A stretch of 64,000 nucleotides of DNA, from the NCBI RefSeq assembly GCF_030013205.1, contig NZ_CP122648.1; one strand, 5' to 3'. Under the pieces are notes generated by a model. That model made no database searches and had not been told where the DNA came from. It was given only the letters and a program-made list of their open reading frames with translations. Position 1 is the first letter of the stretch; every line of letters begins with the position of its first letter. The translations under genes and the position numbers were made by a program. This DNA is from Escherichia coli (GTDB lineage Bacteria; Pseudomonadota; Gammaproteobacteria; Enterobacterales; Enterobacteriaceae). Below, one piece after another: positions 5,143 to 62,704 of the stretch.

Positions 5143-6225
<1,083 letters not shown>

Positions 6226-15303: not shown

Positions 15304-15591
15304 TTACCGCCGCAGTCGTTCCGGCTTCTTCCACTGGTAAGTATTTTTCGCGCTCTCCCTCCGTTGTTGAGAACGGCGACGGTATGCCAGCAACTCAAGG
15401 ACTCTGGTTCGTATGTTGCGCATATCCACGCCGTTAAGCTCAATACCATCACGGCGCATCACCTCAGCAACAACACGCGCGTAATTTTCAGCGGTGACTG
15501 TATCCGGCTGCGCGGCCTGTTCGTCAGCCAACTGGCTGATTCCACCAGCACAGCGGATTAATCGCAGTATTTCAGATTCGGTCATTATCAT
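15304..15591 (-). CDS. Hypothetical protein (95 aa), last gene of the island operon
   Basis: Its start overlaps the upstream stop in an ATGA coupling. The C-terminus is basic. I recognise no family. Confidence 0.55.
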   Translation of the reverse strand: MIMTESEILRLIRCAGGISQLADEQAAQPDTVTAENYARVVAEVMRRDGIELNGVDMRNIRTRVLELLAYRRRSQQRRESAKNTYQWKKPERLRR

Positions 15592-16073: not shown

Positions 16074-16226
16074 ACCCGCTCCAGAATGTTTTAAACATGC
16101 ATCTTGCGAACAACTTTCAGAAGAGGTCAAAAAATGCGCTATATGTTGAGCATAAAACAAGCAAAATTAACATGCCAAAAATAAAAATACTTAAAATTCA
16201 ATACAATATGAAGATGATGATGACGA

Positions 16227-16307
16227 ATGAAAATGCAAAAACTAGCCTTTTTCCGCGCCGCTCCCGCCCCGTGGCAGACCACTCCACCGGGAGGACCCGT
16301 AAAAAAG
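16227..16307. repeat. Copy A of an ~80-bp intra-island repeat
   Basis: atgaaaatgcaaaaactagcctttttccgcgccgctcccgccccgtggcagaccactccaccgggaggacccgtaaaaaag matches 18761-18841 with about 6 mismatches. Confidence 0.9.
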
Positions 16308-16322
16308 GCGGCTGTCGCCGCC
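16301..16322 (-). terminator. Hairpin terminator just after the capsid-fusion gene
   Basis: Minus strand: ggcggc-gaca-gccgcc followed by tttttt. Confidence 0.6.
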
Positions 16323-16329
16323 CTTGTTG

Positions 16330-18243: not shown

Positions 18244-18449
18244 TGCTCCCCCCCAGATGCAAAACCATTCTTATCAAGCCACGCGTTAACCGCGTGTCTG
18301 ACAATCTGCGCCGCACCTGGTAATGGTTGGTCAGGATGATGATTTATGTGGTCGATCCTGTACTGCTTAAGGCGCATAACGGTCTGCGCATCCAGATGAA
18401 CGGAACCACCTTTTACCTCGCCTGTGTTCAGGTCGTTAATACAATTCAC
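18240..18449 (-). CDS. Hypothetical small protein (69 aa), possible ribbon-helix-helix
   Basis: GTG start with the SD aagagga. It is translationally coupled to the protease::capsid gene. Confidence 0.5.
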   Translation of the reverse strand: MNCINDLNTGEVKGGSVHLDAQTVMRLKQYRIDHINHHPDQPLPGAAQIVRHAVNAWLDKNGFASGGEQ

Positions 18450-18551
18450 AGTAACTTCCTCTTACTGACTAAACTGCGCGCATTATTGATCGATAAAAGT
18501 GGTAGATAAACATATTTCTATCATAAAAATAGATTAATCAGATTCAGACAC

Positions 18552-18574
18552 AAAAAAGCCGGAGAGAATCCGGC
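18552..18574 (-). terminator. Rho-independent terminator inside the ssb / 69-aa-ORF spacer
   Basis: Minus strand: gccgga-ttctc-tccggc followed by tttttt. Confidence 0.65.
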
Positions 18575-18760
18575 ATAAATATCCCGCCATCTGAACACGT
18601 TTTGCACAGGCAACTCCATCTGGCAGGTGAAAAACAAATTTATTTATATATTTCAATTAATTGCAAACTGGTCTAATGACAGGGAGAAAAAAATATTGTA
18701 CAGGTGAAAACAGAAATAACTTTTAATTATCAATAAATTACTACACATGCTGCCGCCGCC

Positions 18761-18841
18761 ATGAAAATGCAAAAACCAGCCTTTTTCCGCGACGCTCCCG
18801 CCCCGTGGCAGGTCACTACACCGGGAGGACCCATAAAAAAG
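18761..18841. repeat. Copy B of the ~80-bp intra-island repeat
   Basis: atgaaaatgcaaaaaccagcctttttccgcgacgctcccgccccgtggcaggtcactacaccgggaggacccataaaaaag. Confidence 0.9.
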
Positions 18842-18856
18842 CCGGATTGCTCCGGC
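18835..18856 (-). terminator. Hairpin terminator just after ssb
   Basis: Minus strand: gccgga-gcaa-tccggc followed by tttttt. Confidence 0.6.
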
Positions 18857-18872
18857 TTCTGTTACTCGTTGC

Positions 18873-19295
18873 TTAAAACGGTATGTTATCCCCGTACGGA
18901 TCATCATTTCCCGCCTGTTGTTTTGCTCTGCTCAGTGCATCAGTAGCCTGCCCCTGTTGGCCTTTTTTGCCGCCCGGTCGCGCCGTTCTCGCACTGATTA
19001 CGCTGTCTGCGATAACCTGCCAGCCCTGCCGCGTCTCCCCGTTCTGTCCGGTCCACTGGCTCACCTGCATGTTACCCGCCACGCTCAGGAGTTCACCCTT
19101 GCGGTGCTTTGCCAGTGCTTCGGCCTGTCTGCCAAACGCCAGGACGGATAACCACATCGTCGCCGTTCCGTCATCTGCCTGGCTGCACGGAAGTGGGACC
19201 GCCATACTCGCCATCGTCATTTGTGTACCCTTGCTGGTGGTCTTTAACTGCGGGTCAGCCACCAGCCGCCCGTAAGCCGCTATCTGTGCTGTCAT
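18873..19295 (-). CDS. ssb: Single-stranded DNA-binding protein (140 aa)
   Basis: OB-fold-like N-terminus (AAYGRLVADPQLKTTSKGTQMT...), a Gly/Gln-rich tail, and an acidic tip ending in DNIPF (host SSB ends in DDDIPF). Confidence 0.75.
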   Translation of the reverse strand: MTAQIAAYGRLVADPQLKTTSKGTQMTMASMAVPLPCSQADDGTATMWLSVLAFGRQAEALAKHRKGELLSVAGNMQVSQWTGQNGETRQGWQVIADSVISARTARPGGKKGQQGQATDALSRAKQQAGNDDPYGDNIPF

Positions 19296-19537
19296 GCTGT
19301 CTGCTCTCCGGTTTTAACGTTGATGGTTGTCACCTGTTCCGCTTCGGCAATCTCCCGTTCTGTCAGCGTGGCAAAGTTTGCAGCTGCCGTTGTCATGAAT
19401 GAGCTAATCAGTTCGGGATGTGCTTTCGCATATCCTTCCCCGGCGTTGCGGTCGATGATTTTTATCGACACCCTTAACCAGTGTTCCGTCAAATCAAGGG
19501 CGTGCGATTGTGATTTTTTTGTGTGCTTCGCTGTCAT
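19292..19537 (-). CDS. Hypothetical protein (81 aa)
   Basis: The ORF is in operon register and its stop overlaps the ssb start. I recognise no family. Confidence 0.5.
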   Translation of the reverse strand: MTAKHTKKSQSHALDLTEHWLRVSIKIIDRNAGEGYAKAHPELISSFMTTAAANFATLTEREIAEAEQVTTINVKTGEQTA

Positions 19538-19587
19538 AGGCTTTATCTCACAGCAGTAAATTAAAATTTTTGCGTTTTAACCCTTCA

Positions 19588-19812
19588 CCTGTTCACCTTT
19601 TGATATTTTATCTTTTAATTCATAATGTTAAGGGGTGAACAGTTTCACAAAAACTATTCACCAACTGTTCACCACTGTTCACCCTTGAAGCTCAATAAAC
19701 AATCAAAAAGGTGAACAGTGAATAGTTTGGTGAACAGTTCATAAATAACTGTTCACCCTATAACATACTGATACAAAAGATATTTATGACAGGGTGAACA
19801 GTGGTGAACAGT
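19588..19812. repeat. Iteron array: at least 10 copies of GGTGAACAG(T) in both orientations (putative satellite origin)
   Basis: Copies begin at about 19588, 19634, 19653 (variant), 19663, 19673, 19710, 19719 (variant), 19729, 19748, 19793 and 19803. The array is AT-rich and lies immediately downstream of the primase-helicase gene. Confidence 0.8.
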
Positions 19813-19824
19813 TATTCCATAAGT

Positions 19825-21642
19825 TTAATTTTTGCTATCGTCATTAGTGACCGATACACATGATGGCATCCAGTCTTCTGATTCCTCCGTCAGTGTCACG
19901 TTTGAACGCAAACCGTGCTTCGTTTTCCGTTTCATATACTCCCTGCCATATTCCGCCATTGCCCCCGGCATATCTTTACCGAAGCGCGTCAGTGTTACAG
20001 GTTTACCAAACCCATGTGCCCTCATATAAGCCAGATAGGCATGATAGAGATACCTGCGTGGGCTGAATGGCACAATTTCAGCATTACCCACTAACAGGCC
20101 ATCACACATTACCGACGCCATGAGATAGCCGCAGAAGTCCACCAGCGAATCCCCCTCTCGCTTTATCGCCAGTGCTTCTTCAGATTTCTGCTGCTCATAT
20201 AACAGGCGTCTGGCTTCGTCCTGGTCAGCAAACCGTGTAAGCAGATGGCGAATCACTACCGCCAGCTCACCTTCTATTTTTTCCGCCAGCATTGGATCGC
20301 GTTCGTTCTCCGGTACAACTTCCGAAAAATTGAATATCACCCGACGACGTGAGATCCCCCCGCTGCGGTCACTGAATGACATGGCGTTATTGTTAACCGC
20401 CAGCACTACTGCCGGAATACGCGTTGAGTAGGGGGCTTTGTGTTTCGGGTCAATTGCCACCTTGTCACCGCCTGTAATGGCCTTAATTCCTGCCCCATCA
20501 CCAGCGTAGCGGGTCATATCCGGCATGATAATCAGCGAAAAGCCAACCACTAACGCGCGTTCCCTTGCATCTTCCAGCGCCTTCATGCTTGCCGATACTG
20601 TGTTGGCCTTACCCGCCAGCATGGTGCAAATCTCCGCCATCACGCTTTTACCACTTCCCCCTGGACCTGTTACCTCAATGAATAACTGCCAGTCGTACCG
20701 GTTCGCCAGCACCATGAATAATGCAGCCAGTACGCGATCCGCCTTGCGGTCATTCTCAGCCACCGAACGGCGTAACCACTTCCAGAAATTCGGCGCATGT
20801 GTTGCCAGCGTTTCCCCCTCTGCTGGTGGGCTGAAAGGTAATTCACTGGCAATTAACAACCAGTCGTTTTTGTTATGCTCCCGAAAATTACCTGTTCTGG
20901 TATCAAATACCCCGTTACTGAATCCAATCAGGTTACGGGCTGTATTCCCCATAACAGGCAAACTTAACTTCATGGTATCGACCGCCGATTTAATGGCGTT
21001 CTGCGAATAGCTGATCTCCGCATCAATGAAAATCTGTGCCATAGCTCGCTGTAATTCTTTATCCTGTACTGGCTCCCATACAACGCCGTTGTAATGGTGA
21101 ACAGTGTCAGAGTCAGCATGAATCGCCAGTTCACCGCCATAATGTGCCAGGAGAACTTCGCCGCGTTGACTTGCTCCCATCTGGTTAAGCGCCAGTGATG
21201 AAGCGTTATCGTCTTTTACCCGCTCTTTTTTCTTTACAGGCAGTTCAACTACCTTTTTCTTTTCCGCCTGCTCTGCCCGTTCACGTTCCAGATATTCGCG
21301 CCAGTTCTCCCGTTTCTGGCTGTGCATTCCTTCAGGGTAATAATCAGCATCCCTGACACCTGCCGCTGCCAGTTTCTGCCCGATGGTATTAACAAGCCCC
21401 GGACGCAATAACCCCGCCTGGTAGAGACGCACGCGATAGCGTCCGTCCGGTACGATTTGCAGGTTGTCCAGTTCGGCAAGTTGTTGCTCTCCAAGCCAGA
21501 CAGGTGGCACGTTATCGCCAGCCAGTCGCCCGTCCTGTTCCTGCCACTGCTTCGCATGTGCCCACGCATCACTACCCGCAAAAATGATGACTTCCGTCAT
21601 TTTGTCACGCGGCTGGTGTTTTAAATTTGGCGCTTTTTTCAT
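19825..21642 (-). CDS. P4-alpha-type primase/helicase (about 605 aa)
   Basis: Walker A VTGPGGSGKS, with a D5-N/P4-family C-terminal helicase layout. I chose the MKKAPNLK start because it is ATGA-coupled to the upstream stop; the track ORF starts 15 nt earlier. Confidence 0.8.
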   Translation of the reverse strand: MKKAPNLKHQPRDKMTEVIIFAGSDAWAHAKQWQEQDGRLAGDNVPPVWLGEQQLAELDNLQIVPDGRYRVRLYQAGLLRPGLVNTIGQKLAAAGVRDADYYPEGMHSQKRENWREYLERERAEQAEKKKVVELPVKKKERVKDDNASSLALNQMGASQRGEVLLAHYGGELAIHADSDTVHHYNGVVWEPVQDKELQRAMAQIFIDAEISYSQNAIKSAVDTMKLSLPVMGNTARNLIGFSNGVFDTRTGNFREHNKNDWLLIASELPFSPPAEGETLATHAPNFWKWLRRSVAENDRKADRVLAALFMVLANRYDWQLFIEVTGPGGSGKSVMAEICTMLAGKANTVSASMKALEDARERALVVGFSLIIMPDMTRYAGDGAGIKAITGGDKVAIDPKHKAPYSTRIPAVVLAVNNNAMSFSDRSGGISRRRVIFNFSEVVPENERDPMLAEKIEGELAVVIRHLLTRFADQDEARRLLYEQQKSEEALAIKREGDSLVDFCGYLMASVMCDGLLVGNAEIVPFSPRRYLYHAYLAYMRAHGFGKPVTLTRFGKDMPGAMAEYGREYMKRKTKHGLRSNVTLTEESEDWMPSCVSVTNDDSKN

Positions 21643-21938
21643 TTCGGCTCTCTCCACGCGGCAATCATGTTTTTCAGTTCCTGCAGTTTTTTATCCACAT
21701 CCACACGTGACACATGGTTATTTCTGGAAGTCGGGATTTCCCGCCGGAATCTGCTAATAAAGATCTCCACGTTCAGCGAACTATGAAATGAATAGCCATC
21801 ACGAATAAAATACACACGGTCAAACATCAGTTCTTTTACCGTTACTCTGTTACCGTTCTTATCCAGATAAATAGCGCCGGGGATAATTTTGGGGTGTGCA
21901 TAACCGCTGGCAGTCAAGCCAGATAAATATGTTCTCAT
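21639..21938 (-). CDS. Hypothetical protein (99 aa)
   Basis: The ORF is in operon register and is coupled to the primase gene. I assign no family. Confidence 0.55.
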   Translation of the reverse strand: MRTYLSGLTASGYAHPKIIPGAIYLDKNGNRVTVKELMFDRVYFIRDGYSFHSSLNVEIFISRFRREIPTSRNNHVSRVDVDKKLQELKNMIAAWREPK

Positions 21939-21944
21939 GATTAT

Positions 21945-22265
21945 TTATCCCCGATTTGAATCAGTATTCGCTTTCTTTATGGCATTTAATGCATCTGTGG
22001 CATTTTCAATGGTGCACCGTAACGAAATATCAAACTGCCCAAGCATTGCCAGTAACAAACCGATATTACCCATATCAATGCGCATGGCCTTTTCGTCATA
22101 GTCCTCATTTTCTGACGCATGCCACATCAGGCTACCAATTGACGCAACAGCCATTGATATATTGTCAGTAGCCCCATCAGCAGCGGAATAAACCTTTTTA
22201 GCAATATCATGCTCACAGTTAAAATGCGGATTAATCAGGTACTGGTAATTTGACATATCAGGCAT
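21945..22265 (-). CDS. Hypothetical protein (106 aa)
   Basis: The ORF is in operon register and overlaps the icd-like stop by 8 nt. I assign no family. Confidence 0.55.
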   Translation of the reverse strand: MPDMSNYQYLINPHFNCEHDIAKKVYSAADGATDNISMAVASIGSLMWHASENEDYDEKAMRIDMGNIGLLLAMLGQFDISLRCTIENATDALNAIKKANTDSNRG

Positions 22266-22461
22266 GGCACACCCCCTGACGAATACGGGCGGCGAATACC
22301 ATCACGTAGCCAGCCGGGGATTGCTGGCGTGCTTCCTGTTCACTGGTGGCCTCAATGGTAATCACGCGCGGTTGTGCCGTGCTCAGGGCGATAAAACGCC
22401 AGATGTATTTATTCAGGTTGTACGAGTCCCGCCCTTGCGGGTGTCTGGTATAATTTCTCAT
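22258..22461 (-). CDS. Icd-like (P4 cell-division-inhibitor-like) small protein (67 aa)
   Basis: This is the C-terminal part of the 302-aa track ORF: MRNYTRHPQGRDSYNLNKYIWRFIALSTAQPRVITIEATSEQEARQQSPAGYVMVFAARI... The YIWRF...AR pattern recalls Icd-like proteins of P4-type elements. The SD gagg precedes the ATG at 22461. Confidence 0.55.
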   Translation of the reverse strand: MRNYTRHPQGRDSYNLNKYIWRFIALSTAQPRVITIEATSEQEARQQSPAGYVMVFAARIRQGVCHA

Positions 22462-22575
22462 AGCTGCCTCGATACTGTTGCTATCGTTGGTGGTTAGACG
22501 CCCTGCATGTGTGCCACCACTGCGGGGCGTTGTTGCTTGGTGCATCGCACCATTCGTTTTTAACCTATCAGCAAG

Positions 22576-22630
22576 TGAATCGCACTTCAAGCCTTTCTCT
22601 GAAATTTTTTTTGTGTATACTGAATCGCAC
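22576..22630 (+). promoter_or_regulatory. Two direct TGAATCGCAC repeats, 45 bp apart, in the divergent control region (candidate operators)
   Basis: The 10-mer occurs at 22576-22585 and 22621-22630. The second copy lies between a TATACT -10-like hexamer and the SD of the RHH gene. Confidence 0.45.
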
Positions 22631-22651
22631 CAACTTAGAGAGGATTCAGTA

Positions 22652-22831
22652 ATGGCAACAGGTTCAACAAATAATAAGTCGCAACAGTTAAATGCCAGAT
22701 TCCCGCATGATGTTGTTGCAGACTTAGAAAAAAATTTAGATGAAGGTGAAAGCAAGGCGCAATTTATAGTTACTGCCGTTAAAGGCGAGATCAAACGCCG
22801 CCAGCGCCGCAAGGCCAAAGAGCAGGAGTAA
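22652..22831 (+). CDS. Ribbon-helix-helix (Arc/CopG-like) DNA-binding protein (59 aa); candidate island repressor
   Basis: MATGSTNNKSQQLNARFPHDVVADLEKNLDEGESKAQFIVTAVKGEIKRRQ... shows a beta-alpha-alpha pattern. The SD gagagga lies upstream of the ATG at 22652. Confidence 0.6.
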   Translation: MATGSTNNKSQQLNARFPHDVVADLEKNLDEGESKAQFIVTAVKGEIKRRQRRKAKEQE

Positions 22832-22873
22832 CCATCACCAGCGCCGTGGTGTGAGTAACTACGGCGCATTGCT

Positions 22874-23062
22874 ATGCAGGACAACACAATGACCGATAAA
22901 GAATTGACCAAAACATTATCACCGGCACGGAAAAGACGGCGCAGAAAGATAGAGCATGAATCAGAAAGATTCGCGCCATGTGCTTTTGCTCTTGAGAAAT
23001 TCCTTAAAGAGCACAGGAAAAAGCTCTCGTTGCAAACCTTGGAACGAACCAAATCTGACTGA
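22874..23062 (+). CDS. Hypothetical basic small protein (62 aa)
   Basis: It is co-directional with the RHH gene and followed by a strong terminator. Confidence 0.45.
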   Translation: MQDNTMTDKELTKTLSPARKRRRRKIEHESERFAPCAFALEKFLKEHRKKLSLQTLERTKSD

Positions 23063-23129
23063 TCACATTGCCCACCAGCCGCAAATGTGGCATTGTTGGT
23101 GATGCGTTCAAGTTTAGTGTGTATCCATT

Positions 23130-23158
23130 GGCGACCGCCCCCGGTCGCCTTTGTTTTA
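23130..23158 (+). terminator. Rho-independent terminator of the rightward two-gene unit
   Basis: ggcgaccg-cccc-cggtcgcc followed by tttgtttta. Confidence 0.75.
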
Positions 23159-23176
23159 TATGTCATATGCTCCCCT

Positions 23177-23386
23177 TTACGCTGCCTTGCCTGAATTAAT
23201 GCGATCCCGGCTTTTAACCCATTCCATAACCTCGGACAGCAGCCAACCTACAGAACGACCGCCCAGATTACGGCGTGACGGGAAATTCCCTTTTTTCTCC
23301 AGTTCATAGCGTGTAGTGCGACACACTCCAGTTAACTTACGACATTCATCCTCACGGATTACGCGATCTTCATTTATTTCACGCAT
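23177..23386 (-). CDS. alpA: AlpA-family transcriptional regulator / excision activator (69 aa)
   Basis: The HTH ...CRKLTGVCRTTRYELEKKGNFPSRRNLGGRSVGWLLSEVMEWV is typical of the AlpA family. It lies downstream of int on the same strand. Confidence 0.85.
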   Translation of the reverse strand: MREINEDRVIREDECRKLTGVCRTTRYELEKKGNFPSRRNLGGRSVGWLLSEVMEWVKSRDRINSGKAA

Positions 23387-23805
23387 ACAAAAACCTACAT
23401 AAAAAATTACGTATATAAACTTTTCTCTTAGCTGTAGATATATGAGATCGGATATTACTTAGATTCTTTTTTCACCTCTTAAATTAAAAACACAACCTTG
23501 CTAAAGGCTTTGTTCGCTAAGGTTCGTAGAAGCTCGTTAGTGTTTAAAATCGTGTCACGAGTTTTTAAGCGATGCAACAAAAAATGTCGTTACTTGGCAT
23601 TACGCTTGAATTATCTCATTAAAAACAAATAGATAAACCATCAAGTGTTGGAACAATCAAGAAACAGAGAATAAAAGTTCAGAAGAAGACATTCCAATTT
23701 TTTGATGGTTGACATATATAAAGCGAAGATATTTGCAGATATTTTCCGATATTCTACGATTTATTCACGGCTGTAATCTCTTAAAGAAAAAACAGCCGTA
23801 ATTTG

Positions 23806-25053
23806 TCAAGAATTTTGGGGGTAAATTCGCGGGGTCATAACAACGATTTTTTCATCATTGTTCTGGAGAAGCTCGAGACGGTCTACCCATAGATTAAGAG
23901 CATCACGTTTTGCATCAAGATAACGGGAGTGGTTATAGACTCGTTGCATCCCCGGCATCTGGTGGGCGGTAAGCTGCTCGACAATATGCGGATCCACGCC
24001 TAAATCGTTCAGCATGGTTGTAAATGTGTGCCGGATGTCATGCAACGACCAGGGGGCTTGATTAATGCGTCTGTGTGCCGTTCTTCCGTACTCTGCTACG
24101 GATGATTGCCCTTTCAGTTCTCCAAGCAATAAGCCCGTGTGCCTGTTCTTCTCCACCAGCTTCATGACAAACGGCAAGATCGCTTCCGGTATTGGCCTGA
24201 ATATTGCTACCTTCGTTTTGCTGTGTTCTTTCGGCACAGTCCAGAGCATTTCTTTAAAATCCCATTCCTGAACCTCGGAGCGTCTTAGCTCAGTGGTACG
24301 GCATCCAAAGACAATCAGAAGGCGAATTAAGGCGCTGTAGTACGGCGGGAAAATTTTTTCATCCAGTGCGCGGAGTAGCTCGCCAAGCTCCTTGTTTGTT
24401 AGCACTCGCTCGCTTATTTCTGCTTTTTTTCCCACATCACCTACGACCATATCATCAAGAACGTTACTGACGGCGTAGCGACGTTTACGGCAGTACTTAA
24501 GCGCCTGCTTGCATACCTGCAACAAAAAGCCGGCTGATACCGGATTACGCTTAGCAAGCTGGTCAAAACAGGCCAGCCAGTGGCGTAACTCGCATTTATC
24601 CAGCGGCATAGCACCAATCTGGCTGATTATGTGCTTATTGATCCGGCTTTTCAGTGATTCGTGGTCAGTGCGCTTTTCCTTCGCGTATGACTCAAGCCAG
24701 TAAGTGATCGCGTCCTTAACCGTTACAGGTGCTAACGCTTCCTGCACTGTGTGATTAAGCTCATGGCGTGGATTTTTCCCCTCCGCCAGCCAGGCGCGAC
24801 ACTGTGCCGCTTTTTCTCTGGCTGCTTTCAGGCTCAGATCGGGATAGTTGCCCAGTCTCAGGCGTTCCGGTGATACCTGCCTGCCAGTTCCGGCCCTGTA
24901 AGTGAAATACCAGGTTAACAGGCCATTGGTTGAATGCCTTACGCTAAGGTTGCCACCATCATTAAAAAAGGTGTTTTTTGTGGTTGGTGATCCGCTTAAT
25001 TTTCGTAAAAGAGTGTCGCTAAGTCTATGAATTGCCCTGCTCATGTTTCGCAT
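23806..25053 (-). CDS. int: P4-type tyrosine integrase (415 aa)
   Basis: The catalytic motifs are present (...LHDIRHTF..., ...VYNHSRY...), with a DUF4102-like N-terminus. An alternative start (MSRAIH) lies at 25044. Confidence 0.92.
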   Translation of the reverse strand: MRNMSRAIHRLSDTLLRKLSGSPTTKNTFFNDGGNLSVRHSTNGLLTWYFTYRAGTGRQVSPERLRLGNYPDLSLKAAREKAAQCRAWLAEGKNPRHELNHTVQEALAPVTVKDAITYWLESYAKEKRTDHESLKSRINKHIISQIGAMPLDKCELRHWLACFDQLAKRNPVSAGFLLQVCKQALKYCRKRRYAVSNVLDDMVVGDVGKKAEISERVLTNKELGELLRALDEKIFPPYYSALIRLLIVFGCRTTELRRSEVQEWDFKEMLWTVPKEHSKTKVAIFRPIPEAILPFVMKLVEKNRHTGLLLGELKGQSSVAEYGRTAHRRINQAPWSLHDIRHTFTTMLNDLGVDPHIVEQLTAHQMPGMQRVYNHSRYLDAKRDALNLWVDRLELLQNNDEKIVVMTPRIYPQNS

Positions 25054-25067
25054 TTCCGGTCATCAAA

Positions 25068-25207
25068 ATTAACTACACCATTGACTACACCGTGCATCGT
25101 ACAAGGGCAAACAGCGACGAACAAGGGCGAACAAGAAAAACGAAATTTTCCTTTATAATCATAGCAATAAATGAGATAGATACACCACGACGAACACCCG
25201 CGAACAC
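25068..25207 (+). promoter_or_regulatory. Arm-type repeat array beside int: ATTAACTACACC, ATTGACTACACC, then CGAACAA/CGAACAC copies
   Basis: Same motifs and orientation as 14691-14747. Confidence 0.6.
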
Positions 25208-25211
25208 TAAC

Positions 25212-52365: not shown

Positions 52366-53211
52366 TCAGCCACGTCTTGCACGCTGGATGTCGCGTATCC
52401 GCTGTTTTTCTGCGCGCGCCATCAGATACCAGGCGATAAATCCGACAATTCCGACCGCACCGAGGATCAATGTTGCCAGGGCGTTGATTTCCGGATTCAC
52501 CCCCATCCGCACGCTGGAAAAGACCAGCATCGGTAACGTGGTGGCTCCCGGCCCGGAAACAAAGCTGGCGATCACCAGATCATCAAGCGACAAAGTAAAA
52601 GCCAGTAACCAACCAGAAATGATCGCGGGCATGATCATCGGTAGCGTAATGACGAAAAACACTTTCAGCGGCGTCGCACCGAGATCCATCGCTGCTTCTT
52701 CTATCGAGCTATCCAGTTCCCGCAGACGCGACGAAATAACGACTGCCACATAAGCCGTACAGAAAGTGACATGCGCCAGCCAGATGGTGAGCATACCGCG
52801 GTCCGCAGGCCAGCCAATGGCATGAGCAAGCGCGACGAATAACAACAATAGCGACAAGCCCGTGATGACATCTGGCATCACCAGCGGCGCGGTGATCATA
52901 AAGGCAAAGCCATTTGATCCGCGAAACCTGCCAAAGCGCACCAGCACGACCGCCGCAATCGTCCCGAGGATCGCCGCCGCCGTCGCCGCACAGGCCGCAA
53001 TTGTCAGGCTTAAACCAACCGCACTCATCATTGCGTCATCGCGCAATAACTCACCATACCAGCGTGTTGACCAGCCGGCCCACACCGTCACCAGCTTCGA
53101 GCTGTTGAATGAATAGATCACCAGCATCAGCATTGGCGCGTAGAGAAAGGTGAAGCCCAGCAGCAAAATCACAATCCGCCAGGGCGAACGAACTACCGGT
53201 AAATTATTCAT
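52366..53211 (-). CDS. potI: Putrescine ABC transporter permease PotI (281 aa)
   Basis: MNNLPVVRSPWRIVILLLGFTFLYAPML... I trimmed the start. The gene overlaps the potH stop. Confidence 0.95.
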   Translation of the reverse strand: MNNLPVVRSPWRIVILLLGFTFLYAPMLMLVIYSFNSSKLVTVWAGWSTRWYGELLRDDAMMSAVGLSLTIAACAATAAAILGTIAAVVLVRFGRFRGSNGFAFMITAPLVMPDVITGLSLLLLFVALAHAIGWPADRGMLTIWLAHVTFCTAYVAVVISSRLRELDSSIEEAAMDLGATPLKVFFVITLPMIMPAIISGWLLAFTLSLDDLVIASFVSGPGATTLPMLVFSSVRMGVNPEINALATLILGAVGIVGFIAWYLMARAEKQRIRDIQRARRG

Positions 53212-54161
53212 CCGTGTTCTCCCACGCTTTTTTGCTGATGCTTGTGGAACCACATTATCGGCACAATTAGCAGCAGCAACATGATGATCGCTACCGCTGA
53301 GGCCACCGGCCAGTCGCGATTGTTAAAGAACTCCTGCCATAGCACGCGCCCGATCATGATGCTGTCCGGGCCACCGAGCAGTTCAGGGATCACAAACTCG
53401 CCCACAGCCGGGATAAACACCAGCATCGATCCGGCAATAATCCCGCCTTTGGTCAGCGGCACGATCACAGTAAAGAACGTTTTCAGCGGTCTTGCACCGA
53501 GATCCAGTGCCGCTTCCACCAGCGAATAATCAATACGAATCAAGGCGGTGTAGATCGGCAGCACCATAAACGGCACGTAGGCATAAACAATGCCGATATA
53601 AACGGCCAGATTGGTACGCAGAATGGTCAGCGGCTGGTCGATAACCCCCAGCCACAGCAGAAAATTATTCAGTACGCCGTTATTTTTTAATATTCCCATC
53701 CAGGCATAAACGCGAATCAGAAACGAGGTCCACGACGGCAGGATCACCAGTAGCAATAAGATATTACGGGTCGAAGGCTTACTGTGCGCCACCGCCCACG
53801 CCAGCGGATAGCCGATCAGTAAACAGCAAATAGTCGAAATCGCCGCCACCTGTAGCGACTGGAGATAAGCATCGAAATAGAGCGGATCGTCGGTCAGTTG
53901 CAGGAAATTACCGAGATTAAGAGTGATGGAAAGTTGCCCGTCAGCCCACTCCATCAGTTCGGTATAAGGTGGAATGGCGCGCGCCATCTCCGCCAGGCTT
54001 ATTTTAAAGACAATCAGAAATGGCAGCAGAAACAGCAGGATTAGCCAGATATACGGCAGCGCAATCACCAGTTTGCGCCCATGCTTCATTTGCAGCTGCG
54101 ACAACCACAGCTTAAATCCGCCCGGCGGTTTCGACTGGGCAGCAGGTTCAAGTGTACTCAT
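53208..54161 (-). CDS. potH: Putrescine ABC transporter permease PotH (317 aa)
   Basis: MSTLEPAAQSKPPGGFKLWLSQLQMKHGRKLV... Confidence 0.95.
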   Translation of the reverse strand: MSTLEPAAQSKPPGGFKLWLSQLQMKHGRKLVIALPYIWLILLFLLPFLIVFKISLAEMARAIPPYTELMEWADGQLSITLNLGNFLQLTDDPLYFDAYLQSLQVAAISTICCLLIGYPLAWAVAHSKPSTRNILLLLVILPSWTSFLIRVYAWMGILKNNGVLNNFLLWLGVIDQPLTILRTNLAVYIGIVYAYVPFMVLPIYTALIRIDYSLVEAALDLGARPLKTFFTVIVPLTKGGIIAGSMLVFIPAVGEFVIPELLGGPDSIMIGRVLWQEFFNNRDWPVASAVAIIMLLLLIVPIMWFHKHQQKSVGEHG

Positions 54162-54170
54162 TTTTGCTCC

Positions 54171-55304
54171 TTAAACCGTCAGCACCACACAGCTGTCCAC
54201 TTCCCAGCACAAACGCACTTCATCGCCCCAGGTCGGTAACCCTTTACGATGACGATGGGCGTTTTGTAGCTGGGCGCTAATCATTTGCCCACTTTTCAGA
54301 CGAACGTGATACACCGAAAGATCGCCGAGATAGGCAATGTGTATCACCTCCCCCACCGCAAAATTGTAGCCGTCAGCAGGCGGTTGATCGCAAAGCATGA
54401 TTTTTTCCGGGCGAAGCGCCACATGCACCGGCACGTTATCGACCACCGAAGCATCTACATCGACTTTCAGTGGATGCACCAGCCCCGGCGAATAAAGCAC
54501 CAGACCATCTTCCTGGCGCTCTTTGAGTACACATTCAAAGACATTAACCGAGCCAATAAATTCAGCGCTATAGCGGGTGGTCGGATGCTCATAGATCTCT
54601 TCCGGTTCGCCAATCTGGACAAATTTCCCACGATTCATAATGGCGATGCGCCCCGCCATGGTCATCGCCTCTTCCTGATCGTGAGTAACCATCACGCAGG
54701 TCACACCGACACGCTCCAGAATATCCACCACTTCAAGCTGCATCCGGTCACGCAGCTTTTTATCCAGCGCGCCCATAGGCTCATCGAGCAGTAATAGTTT
54801 CGGGCGCTTGGCAAGGCTTCGGGCCAGTGCCACACGCTGTCGCTGACCGCCGGAAAGCTGATGCGGTTTGCGTTTGGCGAACTCCTGCATATGCACCAGG
54901 CCGAGCATCTCATTGACCCGGCTGGCAATTTCCGCTTTCGGTAGTTTGTCCTGTTTCAGGCCAAAAGCGATGTTCTGTTCCACGGTCATATGCGGAAACA
55001 GCGCGTAAGACTGAAACATCATATTGATGGGGCGCAGGTAAGGCGGAACCTGTGACAAATCGACGCCATCGAGCATAATCTGCCCGGCAGAAGGTTGTTC
55101 GAAACCTGCCAGCATACGCAGCAGCGTGGACTTGCCACAGCCGGATGCGCCCAGCAGCGCGAAGATTTCGCCTTTATAGATGGTCAGGCTGACATCATCG
55201 ACCGCATGCTGACCATCGTAAGATTTAGTCAGATTACGGATTTCTAATAGCGGCGTCAGCGCCTTACGGGTTTTCGCCTGCGGGCGAGGGATAGCGTCAT
55301 TCAC
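54171..55304 (-). CDS. potG: Putrescine ABC transporter ATPase PotG (377 aa)
   Basis: GTG start at 55304 (SD ggagag). (V/M)NDAIPRPQAKTRKALTPLLEIRNLTKSY..., Walker A GASGCGKST. Confidence 0.93.
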   Translation of the reverse strand: MNDAIPRPQAKTRKALTPLLEIRNLTKSYDGQHAVDDVSLTIYKGEIFALLGASGCGKSTLLRMLAGFEQPSAGQIMLDGVDLSQVPPYLRPINMMFQSYALFPHMTVEQNIAFGLKQDKLPKAEIASRVNEMLGLVHMQEFAKRKPHQLSGGQRQRVALARSLAKRPKLLLLDEPMGALDKKLRDRMQLEVVDILERVGVTCVMVTHDQEEAMTMAGRIAIMNRGKFVQIGEPEEIYEHPTTRYSAEFIGSVNVFECVLKERQEDGLVLYSPGLVHPLKVDVDASVVDNVPVHVALRPEKIMLCDQPPADGYNFAVGEVIHIAYLGDLSVYHVRLKSGQMISAQLQNAHRHRKGLPTWGDEVRLCWEVDSCVVLTV

Positions 55305-55398
55305 GGCTGCTCTCCGGCATTGAATGTGTGCAAGCGCACCATAATGGTGCGAATTGCCGGCGGGTGTGGTGCGCCCGTCCGGCATCTACGACTGCGGA

Positions 55399-56511
55399 TT
55401 ATTTTCCGCTCTTCACTTTGGTCCACGCGCGGGTGCGCACACGGTCTATTTTTGGATCCTGCACTTTCAGAGTGAACAACTTCGCACGAACGTCCGCCGG
55501 AGGATAAATCCCTGGATTATCACGCACTTCCGCGCTTACCAGCGGCGTAGCTTCTTTGTTCGCGTTGGCATAGAACACATGGTCGGAAATATGCGCCACC
55601 ACATCCGGGCGCAGCAGGTAATTCAGGAACTGATAGGCTTCGTCTTTATTTTTGGCATCCGCAGGCATGGCGAAGACATCAAAGAACGCCATCGCCCCTT
55701 CTTTCGGAATCGAGAACGAGACATTAACGCCATTTTTCGCTTCCTTCGCGCGGTTTGACGCCTGCCAGACATCGCCCGCCCAGCCAATAGCGACGCAGAT
55801 ATCGCCGTTTGCCAGGTCGTTAATGTATTGAGATGAATGGAAATAACGAATGTTCGGGCGCAGCTTTAACAGCAGATCGGTTGCCGGTCCGGTGTAATCA
55901 TCTGCTTTAGTGCTGTTGGGATCTTTACCGAGATAATTCAGCACGGTAGCAAACACTTCTTCCGGTGCATCAAGGAAAGAGACGCCGCAGCTTTTCAGTT
56001 TTTCCAGATTTTCAGGCTTGAGGATCAAGTCCCAGCTATCGACGGGCGCGTTTTCGCCCAGCACCGCTTTAACTTTATCAACGTTATAGCCAATCCCGGT
56101 CGTCGCCCACATATAGGGCATAGCAAATTTATTGTCGGGATCGTGTTTGGCAACCAACTTCAGCAGCTCCGGATCGAGATTCTTCCACTCCGGCAATTTG
56201 CTTTTGTCCAGCGGCTGGAAAACTCCCGCAGTCAACTGGCGTTCAAGAAAGCTTGCTGACGGCACCACCAGGTCAAAGCCGGTGCTACCCGCCATTAATT
56301 TGCCTTCCAGTACTTCGTTAGAGTCGAAAACATCGTAGACGACTTTAATACCGGTTTCTTTTTCAAAATTGGCTACCGTGTCCGGGGCGATATAATCAGA
56401 CCAGTTATAAATGTGAAGTGTTTTTTGTTCAGCCGCGAGCGTGCCGACAGAGACGGCCATCAGAGCACCCGTAACCAGACCCGATAGCCATTTTTTATTT
56501 AAGGCGGTCAT
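55399..56511 (-). CDS. potF: Periplasmic putrescine-binding protein PotF (370 aa)
   Basis: MTALNKKWLSGLV...AAEQKTLHIYNWSDYIAPDTV... I trimmed the start to the known Met. Confidence 0.95.
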   Translation of the reverse strand: MTALNKKWLSGLVTGALMAVSVGTLAAEQKTLHIYNWSDYIAPDTVANFEKETGIKVVYDVFDSNEVLEGKLMAGSTGFDLVVPSASFLERQLTAGVFQPLDKSKLPEWKNLDPELLKLVAKHDPDNKFAMPYMWATTGIGYNVDKVKAVLGENAPVDSWDLILKPENLEKLKSCGVSFLDAPEEVFATVLNYLGKDPNSTKADDYTGPATDLLLKLRPNIRYFHSSQYINDLANGDICVAIGWAGDVWQASNRAKEAKNGVNVSFSIPKEGAMAFFDVFAMPADAKNKDEAYQFLNYLLRPDVVAHISDHVFYANANKEATPLVSAEVRDNPGIYPPADVRAKLFTLKVQDPKIDRVRTRAWTKVKSGK

Positions 56512-56861
56512 ATCTCTTTCCTTCTGAAAGTTCGTTAACAAACGAACAAAAGTTGTCACACTGAAAGATATGCAATAAACGTGCATATTTTTTATCGGCG
56601 CGGTGTAAGAAAAGAGAACTCTCTCCCGGCCAGCACTGCTCGCTATATAAAAGCATCGCAAGAATAACTTTAGCCAGGGTTTGAGACTATAGCTCGGATT
56701 AAAAAACGGTATTTAACAAATTTTTATGCGTATTTGCTCTATGTGATAAAGCCAAATCGGCACAAGAGAAGTGAAATAATCTTTAAGAAAAGGTTAAAAA
56801 CAGCAGATAATTTTGCAGCACGCAGTCACTGCGGCAGCGACTGCGTACTCGAAAGGAGTTA

Positions 56862-57338
56862 TCAGTGGAGGAAATAGTTTTCGGTAACGTTGTTTTGCCC
56901 TTCATCGTCAGTCGGTAACAGCAGTTGATGGGCATTAGCTTCAAGAATGACCATCGAAATCTGCTCTTCGCTCTGACGCACGAACCATGCAAACTGCTCA
57001 TAGGTTACGCCATGCATAACGGATAAAGACTGGCAAACCACCAGCTTTGGCAGATTATCATCCTGCATATCAAGAAATGCTTTCACGGTCAGCGAACTGG
57101 CATTGATGGCAGATAAATCTGCCGCCAGGGGCAATACGGCTGAAGGTCGGACTTCCGCCATGGCAGAAAACAGGATCGTGTTATCGATCAGATCGATTTT
57201 GGCATCAAAGACACCGTCGAAATTCTGCATATGGGGCAGATGCAGAGCCTGACAGTTATCACATTCAAAAAAACTCATCCCCAGGTCATCGAGCCATTGA
57301 CGCAGCGTATCCAGACCAGGAACGACCAGCGATGTCAT
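56862..57338 (-). CDS. ybjN: Putative sensory-transduction/chaperone-like protein YbjN (158 aa)
   Basis: MTSLVVPGLDTLRQWLDDLGMSFFECDNCQALHLPHMQNFDG... Confidence 0.94.
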   Translation of the reverse strand: MTSLVVPGLDTLRQWLDDLGMSFFECDNCQALHLPHMQNFDGVFDAKIDLIDNTILFSAMAEVRPSAVLPLAADLSAINASSLTVKAFLDMQDDNLPKLVVCQSLSVMHGVTYEQFAWFVRQSEEQISMVILEANAHQLLLPTDDEGQNNVTENYFLH

Positions 57339-57425
57339 AATTTTGTACAACCTCTTTCGATAAAAAGACCGGCACAGCTTACGCAAAAAGCGCAGGCAAA
57401 ACCATGATCAGTAATGTGATTGCGA

Positions 57426-58328
57426 CTAACCACCCGTTTTCAGGCAATATTCTGTCGTAGCGTGGCGTTCGATCCAGCGGATCATTTTACCCGCGATGTC
57501 GATACCGGTGGTTTTTTCTATTCCTTCCAGCCCCGGCGACGCATTCACTTCCATCACCAACGGCCCGCGATTAGCACGCAAAATATCTACACCAGCAACA
57601 TCCAGCGCCATCGTTCGCGCGGCTTTTATCGCGATTTCACGCTCCTGTGGTGTGATACTGGCGACGCTTGCCGCGCCGCCACGATGCAAATTGGAACGAA
57701 AATCGCCCTCTTTCGCCCGCCGTTCAATCGCAGCGACCACTTCATCGCCAACAACCAGACAGCGGATATCGCACCCTTGCGCCTCTTTGATATATTCCTG
57801 CACCAGAATATGCGCGTTCAGACCGCGGAAAGCGTCAATCACGCTTTCGGCCGCCTGACGCGTCTCCGCCAGCACGACGCCAATTCCCTGCGTGCCTTCA
57901 ACCAACTTGACCACCAGCGGCGCACCACCGACCATGTCGATTAAATCGCTGGTATCATCCGGCGAATGCGCAATGCCCGTGACAGGCAGGTCGATGCCCT
58001 GACGCGCCAGCAGTTGCATGGAACGCAATTTGTCACGCGCCCGGGCAATGGCGACCGACTCATTGAGCGGATAGCTCCCCAGCATTTCGAACTGGCGCAG
58101 TGCCGCCGTCCCATAAAAGGTAATGGCGGTACCAATACGCGGGATCACAGCATCAAAATGGGGTAACTTGCGGCCTTTGTAGTGAATAGAAGACGCCGCA
58201 GGATTTATGTTCATGTAGCAAGAAAGCGGATCAAGAATTTCAACCAGGTGACCACGCTGTATAGCGGCTTCACGCAGCCGCTTACACGAATAGAGCGTTC
58301 CATCCCGGGACAATATGGCAATTTTCAC
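57426..58328 (-). CDS. rimK: Ribosomal protein S6 L-glutamate ligase RimK (300 aa)
   Basis: [41 protein letters not shown]... (ATP-grasp fold). Confidence 0.96.
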
Positions 58329-58388
58329 CCTGCACCTCTCTGTCAGACCTGGTCAAAAGCCCGCGTATCATACATCGGCGTGGCGGTT

Positions 58389-59110
58389 TTAGCGCGTCGC
58401 CCAACCCTGTTTGTGCAAATAATCCAGTATAAATGGGCGGCTTTCTTTAATGATTGTTCGGCGGATATGATCGCTCCAGGTATCCCGGCGATTATTGCTG
58501 CCACGTGTGAGGTAATATTCCGCCAGTTGTTCGTCATACTGCGCCAGTGCGTCTTTATCCAGCGGTTGATAGCTGTTTTCATGCACCAAAATGGAGGACG
58601 GTAAACGCGGCTTAAGATCCGGATTATCCGCAGGCCAGCCAAGGCACAGCCCAAACAGCGGCAGAACATGCTGCGGTAATTTCAGCAGCTCCGTCACCGC
58701 TTCAATATTATTGCGCAGGCCGCCGATATATACCCCGCCCAATCCCAGCGATTCCGCTGCGGTTAATGCATTCTGCGCCATCATTGCCGTATCAACGACA
58801 CCGAGCAACAGTTGTTCCGCCAGGCCAAGTTGTGCATCCGGACAGATCTGTAAATGGCGGTTAAAGTCGGCACAGAACACCCAGAACTCCGCCGCTTGCG
58901 CTACGTGTTTTTGCCCGCCGGTCAGCGTCACCAGTTCATCACGTAACGCTTTGTCGGTAATGCGAATAATGCTACTGCACTGCAAAAACTGGAACTGGAC
59001 GTCGCACGGGCGCTGTTAATAATCGCCTCACGCTGCGCTTCGGAAATGGGTTCATCAGTGAAATGGCGAATGGAGCGATGGCCACAAATAAGTTCAATGG
59101 TTGGCGTCAT
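58389..59110 (-). pseudogene. nfsA: nfsA (oxygen-insensitive NADPH nitroreductase A) disrupted by a -1 frameshift
   Basis: Two track ORFs (59110-58928 and 58985-58389) cover NfsA residues 1-42 and ~43-240 in different frames. The coding-strand run reads agtttttgcag (T5; plus-strand A5 at 58984-58988). Reading ...SSSSFLQCSS... requires T6. The interval is 722 nt, against 723 nt for an intact 240-codon gene plus its stop. Confidence 0.9.
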
Positions 59111-59381
59111 TATCTTTTTCTCTTTCTGAACGTGAATATTGCGGTGGACGGTTCATCAGCTGTGGGGCAAGACGTTTTGCCACCTGAAGAATAACCACCA
59201 CCGCAGCGGGAAGCATGAGCAAAACACCGAGAAAAATCATCAGAATCTGCACTTCTGGCCGAGAAAATGGCTCAGGCAGCGACAGGGAGCCGCTTACCGA
59301 CAGCAGCGCCACCGCCAGCAACATCATTCCGATAAATTCCAGTATCAACACGCTTTTAGGCAATTTACCGATCGCGCGCAT
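59094..59381 (-). CDS. ybjC: Inner-membrane protein YbjC (95 aa)
   Basis: MRAIGKLPKSVLILEFIGMMLLAVALLSV... It lies upstream of nfsA and overlaps it. Confidence 0.93.
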   Translation of the reverse strand: MRAIGKLPKSVLILEFIGMMLLAVALLSVSGSLSLPEPFSRPEVQILMIFLGVLLMLPAAVVVILQVAKRLAPQLMNRPPQYSRSEREKDNDANH

Positions 59382-59540
59382 ACGCTTCCCTCTGCAAAGT
59401 GAGCCTTCAGTCTAAAACTTTTCACTGTATTGTGTTTAACAGTTATAGCTTTTAGCAATTAATGCAACAGGTTAAACCTACTTTCAGCGAATACATTTTA
59501 GCGTGATCATTACAGGCATAAATCTATGAGGAGAGAAATA

Positions 59541-59798
59541 ATGCAAACCGTTATTTTTGGTCGTCCGGGTTGCCCTTACTGTGTGCGTGCAAAAGATCTG
59601 GCTGAGAAATTGAGCAATGAACGCGATGATTTTCAGTATCAGTATGTAGATATTCGTGCGGAAGGGATCACTAAAGAAGATCTACAACAAAAGGCAGGTA
59701 ACCCCGTAGAAACCGTGCCGCAGATTTTTGTCGATCAGCAACATATCGGCGGCTATACCGATTTTGCTGCATGGGTGAAAGAGAATCTGGACGCCTGA
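59541..59798 (+). CDS. grxA: Glutaredoxin 1 (85 aa)
   Basis: MQTVIFGRPGCPYCVRAKDLAEKLSNERDDFQYQYVDIRAEGITKEDLQQKAG... (CPYC active site). Confidence 0.96.
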   Translation: MQTVIFGRPGCPYCVRAKDLAEKLSNERDDFQYQYVDIRAEGITKEDLQQKAGNPVETVPQIFVDQQHIGGYTDFAAWVKENLDA

Positions 59799-59827
59799 TC
59801 GTCTGACAAGCCCTCGCGTTGAGGGCT

Positions 59828-60205
59828 TTATTGATTTTTTCTGTGCTGTGGTTTAAACAAACTACTGATAAATAAGAAACACAGTGCCCCCAGCGCACAC
59901 CAGAACACCGCACTTAATAACCATGCCAGCTCTTGCCAGAATGAGCGCGTCGGTGAAAAAAACAGCCGCATAATAAGCATTGAACAGGGTGCCGCCAGCA
60001 TTGCGCCAAACAGAGGTTTCAGGACTTCTCTACGCTGTGAAAAGAAGCTGGCAACTGCTCCAGGAAGAATGAAAAACAGCAAGCCGATTTCAGGATGCCC
60101 GGCAGCCCGAAAAGCGCCTTTCATGTGCGTCGCCAGAAAAAGGCACACCACAATGAAGAGGACAAAACAGCAGATTGCCCCCGCCCAACGTTGTTTATGT
60201 TTCAC
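59828..60205 (-). CDS. ybjM: Inner-membrane protein YbjM (125 aa)
   Basis: I recognise the sequence and context. The protein has four hydrophobic segments. Confidence 0.9.
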   Translation of the reverse strand: MKHKQRWAGAICCFVLFIVVCLFLATHMKGAFRAAGHPEIGLLFFILPGAVASFFSQRREVLKPLFGAMLAAPCSMLIMRLFFSPTRSFWQELAWLLSAVFWCALGALCFLFISSLFKPQHRKNQ

Positions 60206-60474
60206 TCGTTCCTCCTGACACTGCGTCTATCGAACACATTTTTCGCCAGTGTGGCGTTCAGTAAGATAAAGCCGCTTCGCATTCCATGCTAATATAGGCC
60301 AACGCAATTCATATAGCCGTTGATACCTAATGTGATTACACTAGTAAAATATATTGTTACTTTACTATCGTTTAGGTGCGCTGAATGAATCTGCGCCCTG
60401 AATTCTGGTAAAAAACATTATCGTAAATTACCATTTCTTTCAACAGCTTACTAGTAAACAAGAAGTTAGCCTCC

Positions 60475-62160
60475 GTGAATATAAACGTCGCCGAATTGTT
60501 AAATGGGAATTACATTCTGTTATTATTTGTGGTCCTCGCGCTTGGGCTATGTCTCGGGAAATTACGACTTGGTTCGATCCAACTGGGTAATTCCATTGGC
60601 GTTTTAGTCGTATCGCTGTTATTAGGCCAACAACATTTCAGCATTAACACCGACGCGCTTAATCTTGGCTTTATGCTGTTTATTTTCTGCGTCGGGGTCG
60701 AAGCCGGACCGAACTTTTTTTCCATTTTTTTTCGCGATGGGAAAAATTACCTAATGTTAGCACTGGTGATGGTTGGCAGTGCGCTGGCCATCGCCTTAGG
60801 GTTAGGTAAGCTGTTTGGCTGGGATATTGGCCTGACGGCCGGTATGTTAGCAGGCTCTATGACGTCAACACCGGTTCTGGTCGGTGCTGGCGATACACTG
60901 CGTCATTCCAGCATGGAAAGCAGGCAGCTCTCACTGGCACTGGATAATCTGAGCCTCGGGTATGCCTTAACCTATTTAATCGGTCTGGTGAGTTTGATTG
61001 TTGGTGCGCGTTACTTGCCGAAATTGCAGCATCAGGACTTACAGACCAGCGCCCAGCAAATCGCCCGCGAACGTGGCCTGGACACAGATGCCAACCGTAA
61101 GGTTTATTTGCCGGTGATCCGCGCCTACCGCGTCGGCCCGGAGCTGGTAGCCTGGACCGACGGCAAAAATCTGCGTGAACTGGGTATTTATCGACAAACT
61201 GGCTGTTACATTGAACGTATTCGACGTAACGGGATTCTGGCAAATCCAGACGGTGATGCCGTGCTACAAATGGGCGATGAAATAGCGTTGGTAGGCTATC
61301 CCGACGCCCATGCCCGACTCGATCCCAGCTTCCGTAACGGTAAAGAAGTTTTCGATCGTGACCTTCTCGACATGCGTATCGTCACTGAAGAAGTAGTCGT
61401 TAAAAACCATAACGCTGTTGGCAAACGCCTGGCACAACTGAAGTTGACCGATCACGGTTGCTTCCTTAACCGCGTCATACGTAGCCAGATTGAGATGCCG
61501 ATTGATGACAACGTCGTGCTTAACAAAGGTGACGTTTTACAAGTCAGCGGCGATGCCCGCCGCGTAAAAACCATCGCCGATCGCATCGGCTTTATCTCGA
61601 TTCACAGCCAGGTCACTGACTTGCTGGCATTCTGCGCCTTCTTTGTGATTGGGCTAATGATCGGGATGATCACCTTCCAGTTCAGCACATTCAGTTTCGG
61701 TATGGGGAACGCTGCCGGGTTGTTATTCGCCGGAATTATGCTGGGCTTTATGCGTGCTAACCACCCGACCTTCGGTTACATTCCGCAGGGTGCATTAAGC
61801 ATGGTGAAGGAGTTCGGCTTGATGGTGTTTATGGCAGGCGTTGGTCTGAGCGCTGGTAGCGGTATTAATAACGGCCTGGGCGCGATTGGCGGTCAAATGT
61901 TGATTGCCGGATTGATTGTCAGTCTGGTGCCCGTGGTTATCTGTTTCTTGTTCGGTGCTTATGTATTGCGAATGAACCGCGCACTGTTGTTCGGCGCAAT
62001 GATGGGCGCACGCACCTGCGCGCCGGCAATGGAGATCATCAGTGATACAGCTCGCAGTAACATCCCGGCGCTGGGCTATGCGGGCACCTACGCAATCGCC
62101 AACGTCCTGCTGACGCTGGCAGGGACAATCATCGTCATGGTATGGCCAGGATTAGGATAA
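60475..62160 (+). CDS. ybjL: Putative AAE-family transporter YbjL (561 aa)
   Basis: GTG start. Two transmembrane halves flank tandem TrkA-C domains. Confidence 0.94.
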
Positions 62161-62203
62161 AACTGAAGTTGCCCTGAAAATGAAATTTTTTTGCACAACC
62201 GCA

Positions 62204-62230
62204 GAACTTTTCCGCAGGGCATCAGTCTTA
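62204..62230 (+). promoter_or_regulatory. Sigma-E promoter of rybB
   Basis: GAACTT (62204-62209), 16 nt, TCTTA (62226-62230), with the sRNA 5' end 6 nt downstream. This fits the sigma-E consensus GGAACTT-N16-TCnaA. Confidence 0.8.
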
Positions 62231-62236
62231 ATTAGT

Positions 62237-62315
62237 GCCACTGCTTTTCTTTGATGTCCCCATTTTGTGGAGCCCATCAACCCCGCCATTTCGGTTCAAG
62301 GTTGGTGGGTTTTTT
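62237..62315 (+). ncRNA. rybB: Sigma-E-dependent Hfq-binding sRNA RybB (~79 nt)
   Basis: GCCACTGCTTTTCTTTGATGTCCCCATTTTGTGGAGCCCATCAACCCCGCCATTTCGGTTCAAGGTTGGTGGGTTTTTT. I recognise this as RybB, including its terminator hairpin and U-tail. Confidence 0.93.
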
Positions 62316-62395
62316 GTTGCCTAAAATTTATGCCTTTTAAAATCATGATATTAGAAGCACTGTTTTTTAACGATGGCGACAAAATGGCGGCAGCG

Positions 62396-62614
62396 TCAAA
62401 GAGAGAGCGCCACCTGTCCTGATTTCATTGGATGCGGCTGAACCGGATTTGACTCTTTTGGCGTTGCAATCGAACGAACAAAAGTTTCATGGGTAACAAA
62501 AGTATGGCTGCAGTTAATGTTCTGGCACTGGTTGTAACGCTCTTTGGTCAATGAAGATACCTGAAAACTGCTGCGAGTATGGGCGGCACTTCCACACAGT
62601 GGGCAAATCATCAT
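62396..62614 (-). CDS. ogr: P2 Ogr-type zinc-finger late-gene activator (72 aa)
   Basis: MMICPLCGSAAHTRSSFQVSSLTKERYNQCQNINCSHTFVTHETFVRSI... compares with P2 Ogr MFHCPLCQHAAHARTSRYITDTTKERYHQCQNVNCSATF (CxxC...CxxxxC). I trimmed the start to the Met after the SD ggggaga. Confidence 0.9.
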   Translation of the reverse strand: MMICPLCGSAAHTRSSFQVSSLTKERYNQCQNINCSHTFVTHETFVRSIATPKESNPVQPHPMKSGQVALSL

Positions 62615-62704
62615 TTTTCGAGTTCTCCCCATTTTTGCTAAATTCACAATAATGATACCGCATTATTCCATTTTGCAAACTTAAAAGTTCTCCATTGCGA
62701 AGAA

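Follow-up and report, generated by a model that had tools for sequence, protein, structure and literature searches.

A probably genuine frameshift allele of nfsA, predicted to abolish function, in a sub-clade of a porcine Escherichia coli lineage

Nitrofuran resistance in Escherichia coli is acquired stepwise, with nfsA lost first and nfsB second (Whiteway 1998 and Sandegren 2008, as cited in a 2025 preprint), and the preprint itself describes this two-step route for genes lying ~287 kb apart. The usual first-step nfsA lesions are frameshifts, nonsense mutations, IS insertions and deletions (PMC8767348; 2025 preprint), and homopolymeric-tract frameshifts of both nfsA and nfsB are common in mutS mutators (2025 preprint). 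According to Wan et al. (2021, Microb Genom 7:000702; PMC8767348), nfsA loss-of-function single mutants with wild-type NfsB have MICs of mostly 16-64 mg/L and are mostly clinically susceptible, one isolate with an interrupted nfsA had an MIC of 256 mg/L and formed colonies within the zone of inhibition, and double mutants with two known resistance-associated alterations have MICs of at least 256 mg/L. The closest described system is IN08, a human urinary clinical isolate of ST685 and phylogroup A, which combines nfsA 123delT/L43fs with NfsB G153D and has a nitrofurantoin MIC of >512 mg/L (PMC8767348). The same authors found nfsA start-loss alleles in 14 genomes and argue for selection or weak constraint as the explanation for nfsA loss (PMC8767348). 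Here we describe the nfsA locus in a stretch of 64,000 nucleotides of an E. coli genome (contig NZ_CP122648.1), referred to as the window, in which the gene is interrupted by a single-base deletion.

Structure of the nfsA locus

The nfsA pseudogene lies at 58389-59110 on the minus strand and is 722 nt long, compared with 723 nt (240 codons plus stop) for the intact gene. The chromosomal order ybjC-nfsA-rimK-ybjN is conserved around it; upstream, ybjC (59094-59381, minus strand) is intact and overlaps the nfsA start by 17 nt at its 3' end, and downstream, rimK (57426-58328, minus strand) is likewise intact. The 1-nt deletion is located at 58984-58988, where the minus-strand reading is ...GTCCAGTTCCAGTTTTTGCAGTGCAG... 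and the coding strand, ...CCAGTTCCAGTTTTTGCAGTGCAG..., holds five T's (T5), equivalent to A5 on the plus strand. In intact nfsA, a run of six T's (T6) occupies nt 123-128, extending from the third base of codon 41 through codon 42 to the second base of codon 43; the lesion is named nfsA 123delT, L43fs, with the frame broken after codon 42. No other homopolymer in nfsA is as long as this T6 run, which makes it the place where slippage is expected; replication slippage there would have removed one T, converting T6 to T5.

Two residual reading frames, both on the minus strand, are left by the deletion. The N-terminal ORF (58928-59110) encodes 60 aa from the native ATG, consisting of NfsA residues 1-42 and an 18-residue out-of-frame tail, CSAVALFALPTKRYVMNW, followed by a stop. 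Its product, MTPT...SSSSFCSAVALFALPTKRYVMNW, matches the NCBIfam NfsA profile NF008033 over profile positions 1-49 (E=6.8e-16), and this exact 60-aa sequence is indexed in 62 blocks of public assemblies. The C-terminal ORF (58389-58985) encodes 198 aa corresponding to NfsA residues 43-240, starts at a TTG created inside the T-run, and matches positions 43-240 of the same profile (E=1.5e-109). Adding one T to the locus yields a 723-nt ORF of 240 codons, the product of which is identical to the NfsA structure 1F5V at 235/240 residues. The NfsA family requires a single uninterrupted 240-codon ORF, and the broken frame makes the locus a pseudogene rather than a functional member.

These readings bear out the initial annotation, which had identified the gene as nfsA with T5 in place of T6, an assignment borne out by the sequence itself, the NF008033 match and the T6 sister genomes described below. 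Its 60-aa N-terminal ORF and 198-codon remainder both appear in the ORF list, and its comparison of 722 nt with 723 nt agrees with the restoration of the full frame by one T. It had also described ybjC and rimK as intact, as found here, and in the corresponding stretch of the closest relative no gene other than nfsA carries a frameshift annotation.

Translation from the native ATG would stop after 60 residues, and the 198-codon remainder, lacking residues 1-42 and any obvious ribosome-binding site, would not be expected to supply active NfsA. Re-initiation at the TTG to produce an active enzyme was considered and rejected; our own reading of the sequence upstream of the 198-aa ORF revealed no Shine-Dalgarno-like motif, and the missing residues include H11 and S13, which have been named as functionally important (2025 preprint).

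Inheritance of the deletion versus assembly error

The closest relative is ETEC4079 (NZ_CP122643.1; pig faeces, Belgium), whose nfsA locus is nucleotide-identical to that of the window, T5 included, and is recorded in RefSeq as an nfsA pseudogene (QDW55_RS16705, 'nitroreductase NfsA, frameshifted'). Outside a 10.6-kb island (14624-25211), which ETEC4079 does not have, the two sequences are identical over ~53.4 kb, apart from two 'mismatches' that both fall in the island's imperfect flanking repeat. Since the island is present in the window and absent from ETEC4079, at least two assemblies share T5, and the window is, judging by this near-identity, another genome of the ETEC4079 sub-clade. The nfsA genes of ETEC4067, ETEC1748 and K_EC180 differ from that of the window by exactly one base, an extra T. 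Two SNPs, at 25370 (yljB-cspD intergenic region) and 39664 (ltaE, non-synonymous), are carried by the window and ETEC4079 and are absent from these three T6 sisters, indicating that T5 tracks a clade. Just three NCBI contigs are recorded with the LtaE variant (WP_282842951.1); one of them, the draft GCA_030346235.1, differs from the window at 32719 (T6 vs T7).

Public assemblies of other sequencing runs extend this pattern. Window positions 48389-64000, T5 included, are matched at 100% identity by the Logan contig SRR30668465_17. A second Logan contig, ERR8980237_7, matches the SRR30668465 contig both in total length (72,429 nt) and in its offset across nfsA (47137), but differs from it in carrying the ancestral A at 39664 (ltaE) and a private SNP at 52473, and therefore represents another isolate. 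Its total length and offset indicate that this isolate probably carries T5 as well, given that the sister-type contig DRR588672_33 has an offset of 47138, one base more, as expected for T6. T5 is thus stably common to isolates that have since gained SNPs, and the allele would be that of a small sub-clade within a porcine E. coli lineage.

We regard T5 as a genuine, inherited loss-of-function allele of nfsA, a real mutation, with a probability of roughly 0.86. It is unlikely that the missing T is instead a homopolymer-length error of long reads or consensus polishing in a strain that truly carries T6 and a functional nfsA. The initial annotation had raised this caveat, and reasonably so, as the nearest public record is nanopore-only; the ETEC genome series was built from nanopore reads alone with Trycycler and medaka 1.5.0 polishing (PMC10151945). 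In addition, sister records contain private single-base homopolymer indels that frameshift conserved genes, and the T5 call also appears in public contigs with many other indels. However, T5 is not private to one assembly: direct reading shows it in the window, ETEC4079 and SRR30668465, three distinct assemblies, and ERR8980237 probably has it too. The two Logan contigs are k-mer assemblies of other runs and, compared with the window over 15-20 kb, contain no indel. Moreover, ETEC4067, ETEC4069, ETEC4070, ETEC4071 and ETEC1748, which come from the same nanopore/Trycycler/medaka project and have identical flanks, all read T6, which rules out a systematic miscall specific to this site.

The surrounding sequence also argues against an error. 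Among the 93 homopolymers of at least 6 bases in the window, 22 of which are 7-8 bases long, only the nfsA run differs from the sisters; the longer and more error-prone 7- and 8-base runs all match, and a random miscall would have had to strike the very gene of a documented selected mutation. Alignment against three sisters over ~50 kb revealed no other indel. Across ~219 kb of the ETEC4079 annotation, the frameshift flag falls on one conserved core gene only, nfsA; an IS3 fragment, an island DUF1643 gene and a hok-associated hypothetical gene are the other flagged features. Visual inspection of the sequence beside the T-run for methylation motifs (Dam, Dcm or EcoKI), sought as a possible cause of a systematic nanopore miscall, revealed none. 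With recurrence of T5 in a sub-lineage and T6 in same-pipeline sisters, the homopolymer caveat can largely be set aside. Beyond this locus, the case illustrates how doubt over a long-read homopolymer may be judged without the reads, through clade sharing, same-pipeline sisters and independent public assemblies.

Isolated indels do occur in the sister records. ETEC1748 has a private T8 to T7 change at window position 60725 that frameshifts ybjL, and K_EC180 has four private homopolymer indels, at window positions 5196, 11590, 46658 and 49983, and its artJ carries a frameshift annotation; these indels are probably errors left behind by long-read assembly. Project-wide nanopore noise, suspected from the ETEC1748 ybjL frameshift, was set aside in view of the very low indel rate in the ~219 kb of ETEC4079 and in the ~50-kb alignment with three sisters.

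The 10.6-kb island (14624-25211) is inserted into the clpS-cspD interval, at the yljB 3' end; ETEC4067, ETEC1748 and K_EC180 lack it, as does ETEC4079. It is flanked by an imperfect ~21-bp repeat, GATAAATAACTATCAT[T/C]TAT, and encodes a DUF1441 protein (15588-16160), a ClpP-protease/major-capsid fusion (16330-18243), an SSB (18873-19295), a D5-type primase-helicase (19825-21657) and a tyrosine integrase (23806-25053, minus strand), a phage-satellite architecture resembling that of capsid-forming PICIs. Among complete genomes, KGu016 matches best, at 99.1% across the first 25 kb of the window. Elsewhere in the window, at 44210-45448 and 62396-63730, lie a truncated pentapeptide-repeat gene and P2-like prophage remnants adjoining ybjL, the latter including an ogr/Delta-like gene and a partial late-control D gene; these features are common to the sister genomes, where they are annotated as partial pseudogenes.

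Variation of the T-run and recurrent loss of nfsA

Within the species, T6 is the prevailing state, being carried by nearly all of the ~5,400 complete E. coli genomes. A 901-nt query around nfsA matched 5,416 of the 5,426 complete genomes, and among the matches listed ETEC4079 alone aligned over 901 bases at 100%, the other top matches (H2-H40) spanning 902. A 75-nt probe centred on the T-run, which found a match in ~5,384 complete genomes, picked out 11 complete-genome records in which T5 lies between identical flanks; these records come from chicken, duck, cattle, pig and human sources. In the two of these that were inspected, APEC IMT5155 and Res13-Lact-PEA12-26, nfsA is annotated as frameshifted too. 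The T7 (+1) version of the probe was found in 11 other complete genomes (H146-H156), 10 of them from pig, pork or cow. Their genome sizes and coordinates are alike, which points to a single livestock clone for most of them. The T7 alleles affect the same homopolymer and shift the frame at the same codon as the window, but by insertion instead of deletion.

Altogether, 22 complete-genome records have a changed run length, in both directions. T5 also occurs in clean, indel-free contigs of unrelated lineages (L005, L008, L009 and the ENA metagenome contig L014), the name of the last suggesting that it came from a short-read assembler. In the visibly noisy contigs L007, L010 and L013, the T5 call may be an artefact. 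Two-way variation of the T6 run in 22 of ~5,400 complete genomes, often from livestock, is a modest epidemiological point and involves no new mechanism.

Loss of nfsA by other routes was also observed in other public assemblies. In a Logan assembly ~99.9% identical to the window (SRR11215245), T6 is retained, and a ~197-bp deletion between GCCATTT direct repeats, at the equivalent of window positions 59068-59264, removes the 3' end of ybjC together with nfsA codons 1-16. This deletion is a predicted independent knock-out of nfsA in the same clonal group. Another Logan assembly (ERR435530) and 10 similar places have the nfsA start codon changed from ATG to ATA (3G>A), with T6 present and the gene otherwise identical; this start loss is of the same kind as the start-loss alleles of Wan et al. 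Such recurrence suggests that nfsA loss reflects either selection or weak constraint and tolerance.

Predicted phenotype and comparison with known systems

In ETEC4079, nfsB is full-length (217 aa) and lies 315 kb from nfsA, and its product differs from that of K-12/1DS7 by the substitutions M75I, V93A, E137Q and A174E. With nfsB full-length in the closest relative, the window would represent a first-step state with modestly reduced nitrofuran susceptibility, and the prediction is therefore of a first step, not of clinical resistance. The initial annotation had described a nitrofuran-resistance-type lesion; this stands in so far as the same 123delT/L43fs occurs in the resistant isolate IN08, but the lesion alone predicts only reduced susceptibility. 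Both the loss of NfsA activity and its effect on MIC are predictions from sequence, and past nitrofuran selection would plausibly be the reason for the persistence of the T5 allele. Under this reading, the porcine sub-clade is probably a first-step nitrofuran mutant that a single further mutation, in nfsB, would take to high-level nitrofurantoin/furazolidone resistance, a point of relevance to genotype-based resistance prediction.

Two further readings accept the deletion as real and question whether the loss is complete. One, which we consider very improbable, is that the T6 run serves as a low-grade reversible switch, with T5 and T7 being off states under exposure to nitrofurans or nitroaromatic prodrugs in livestock, and with back-slippage or -1 ribosomal slippage restoring function. 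Some reversibility would be in keeping with the natural variation in run length in both directions (T5 and T7 in 11 complete-genome records each) and with the homopolymer-tract frameshifts of mutS mutators noted above. If true, the T5 allele would represent not a dead gene but a standing adaptive state that can be reversed. For phase variation or for transcriptional slippage in E. coli, five or six T's make a short run, which counts against a switch, and T5 has remained stable among isolates with later SNPs, which argues against reversion. Hardly credible is the other, a real yet partial frameshift in which -1 tRNA-Phe slippage on the U-run or frequent T5/T6 reversion keeps some NfsA activity: a one-base backward shift on the U-run (AGU UUU UGC) does give the wild-type F42-L43-Q44 on direct reading of the sequence, but there is neither a canonical X XXY YYZ heptamer nor a recognised downstream stimulator, and the high resistance of IN08, which has the same lesion together with NfsB G153D, argues against substantial residual activity.

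Collectively, the preferred reading, a genuine and inherited loss-of-function allele, places the window close to systems that have already been described. The lesion, the gene and its role in resistance are published, and the pseudogene is already in RefSeq, so nothing is new in mechanism or lesion. The locus resembles known first-step nfsA mutants, in which a disruptive nfsA mutation is accompanied by an intact nfsB; the likeness here is drawn through the nfsB of ETEC4079, and the phenotype is a predicted one. The disruptive mutation is itself documented in a resistant isolate, being the 123delT/L43fs of IN08: there, as in the window, one T is missing from this T6 run, so that the frame shifts at codon 43 and a premature stop follows. 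However, IN08 is a human urinary isolate that additionally carries NfsB G153D, whereas the window belongs to a porcine lineage whose closest relative has a full-length nfsB with four substitutions.
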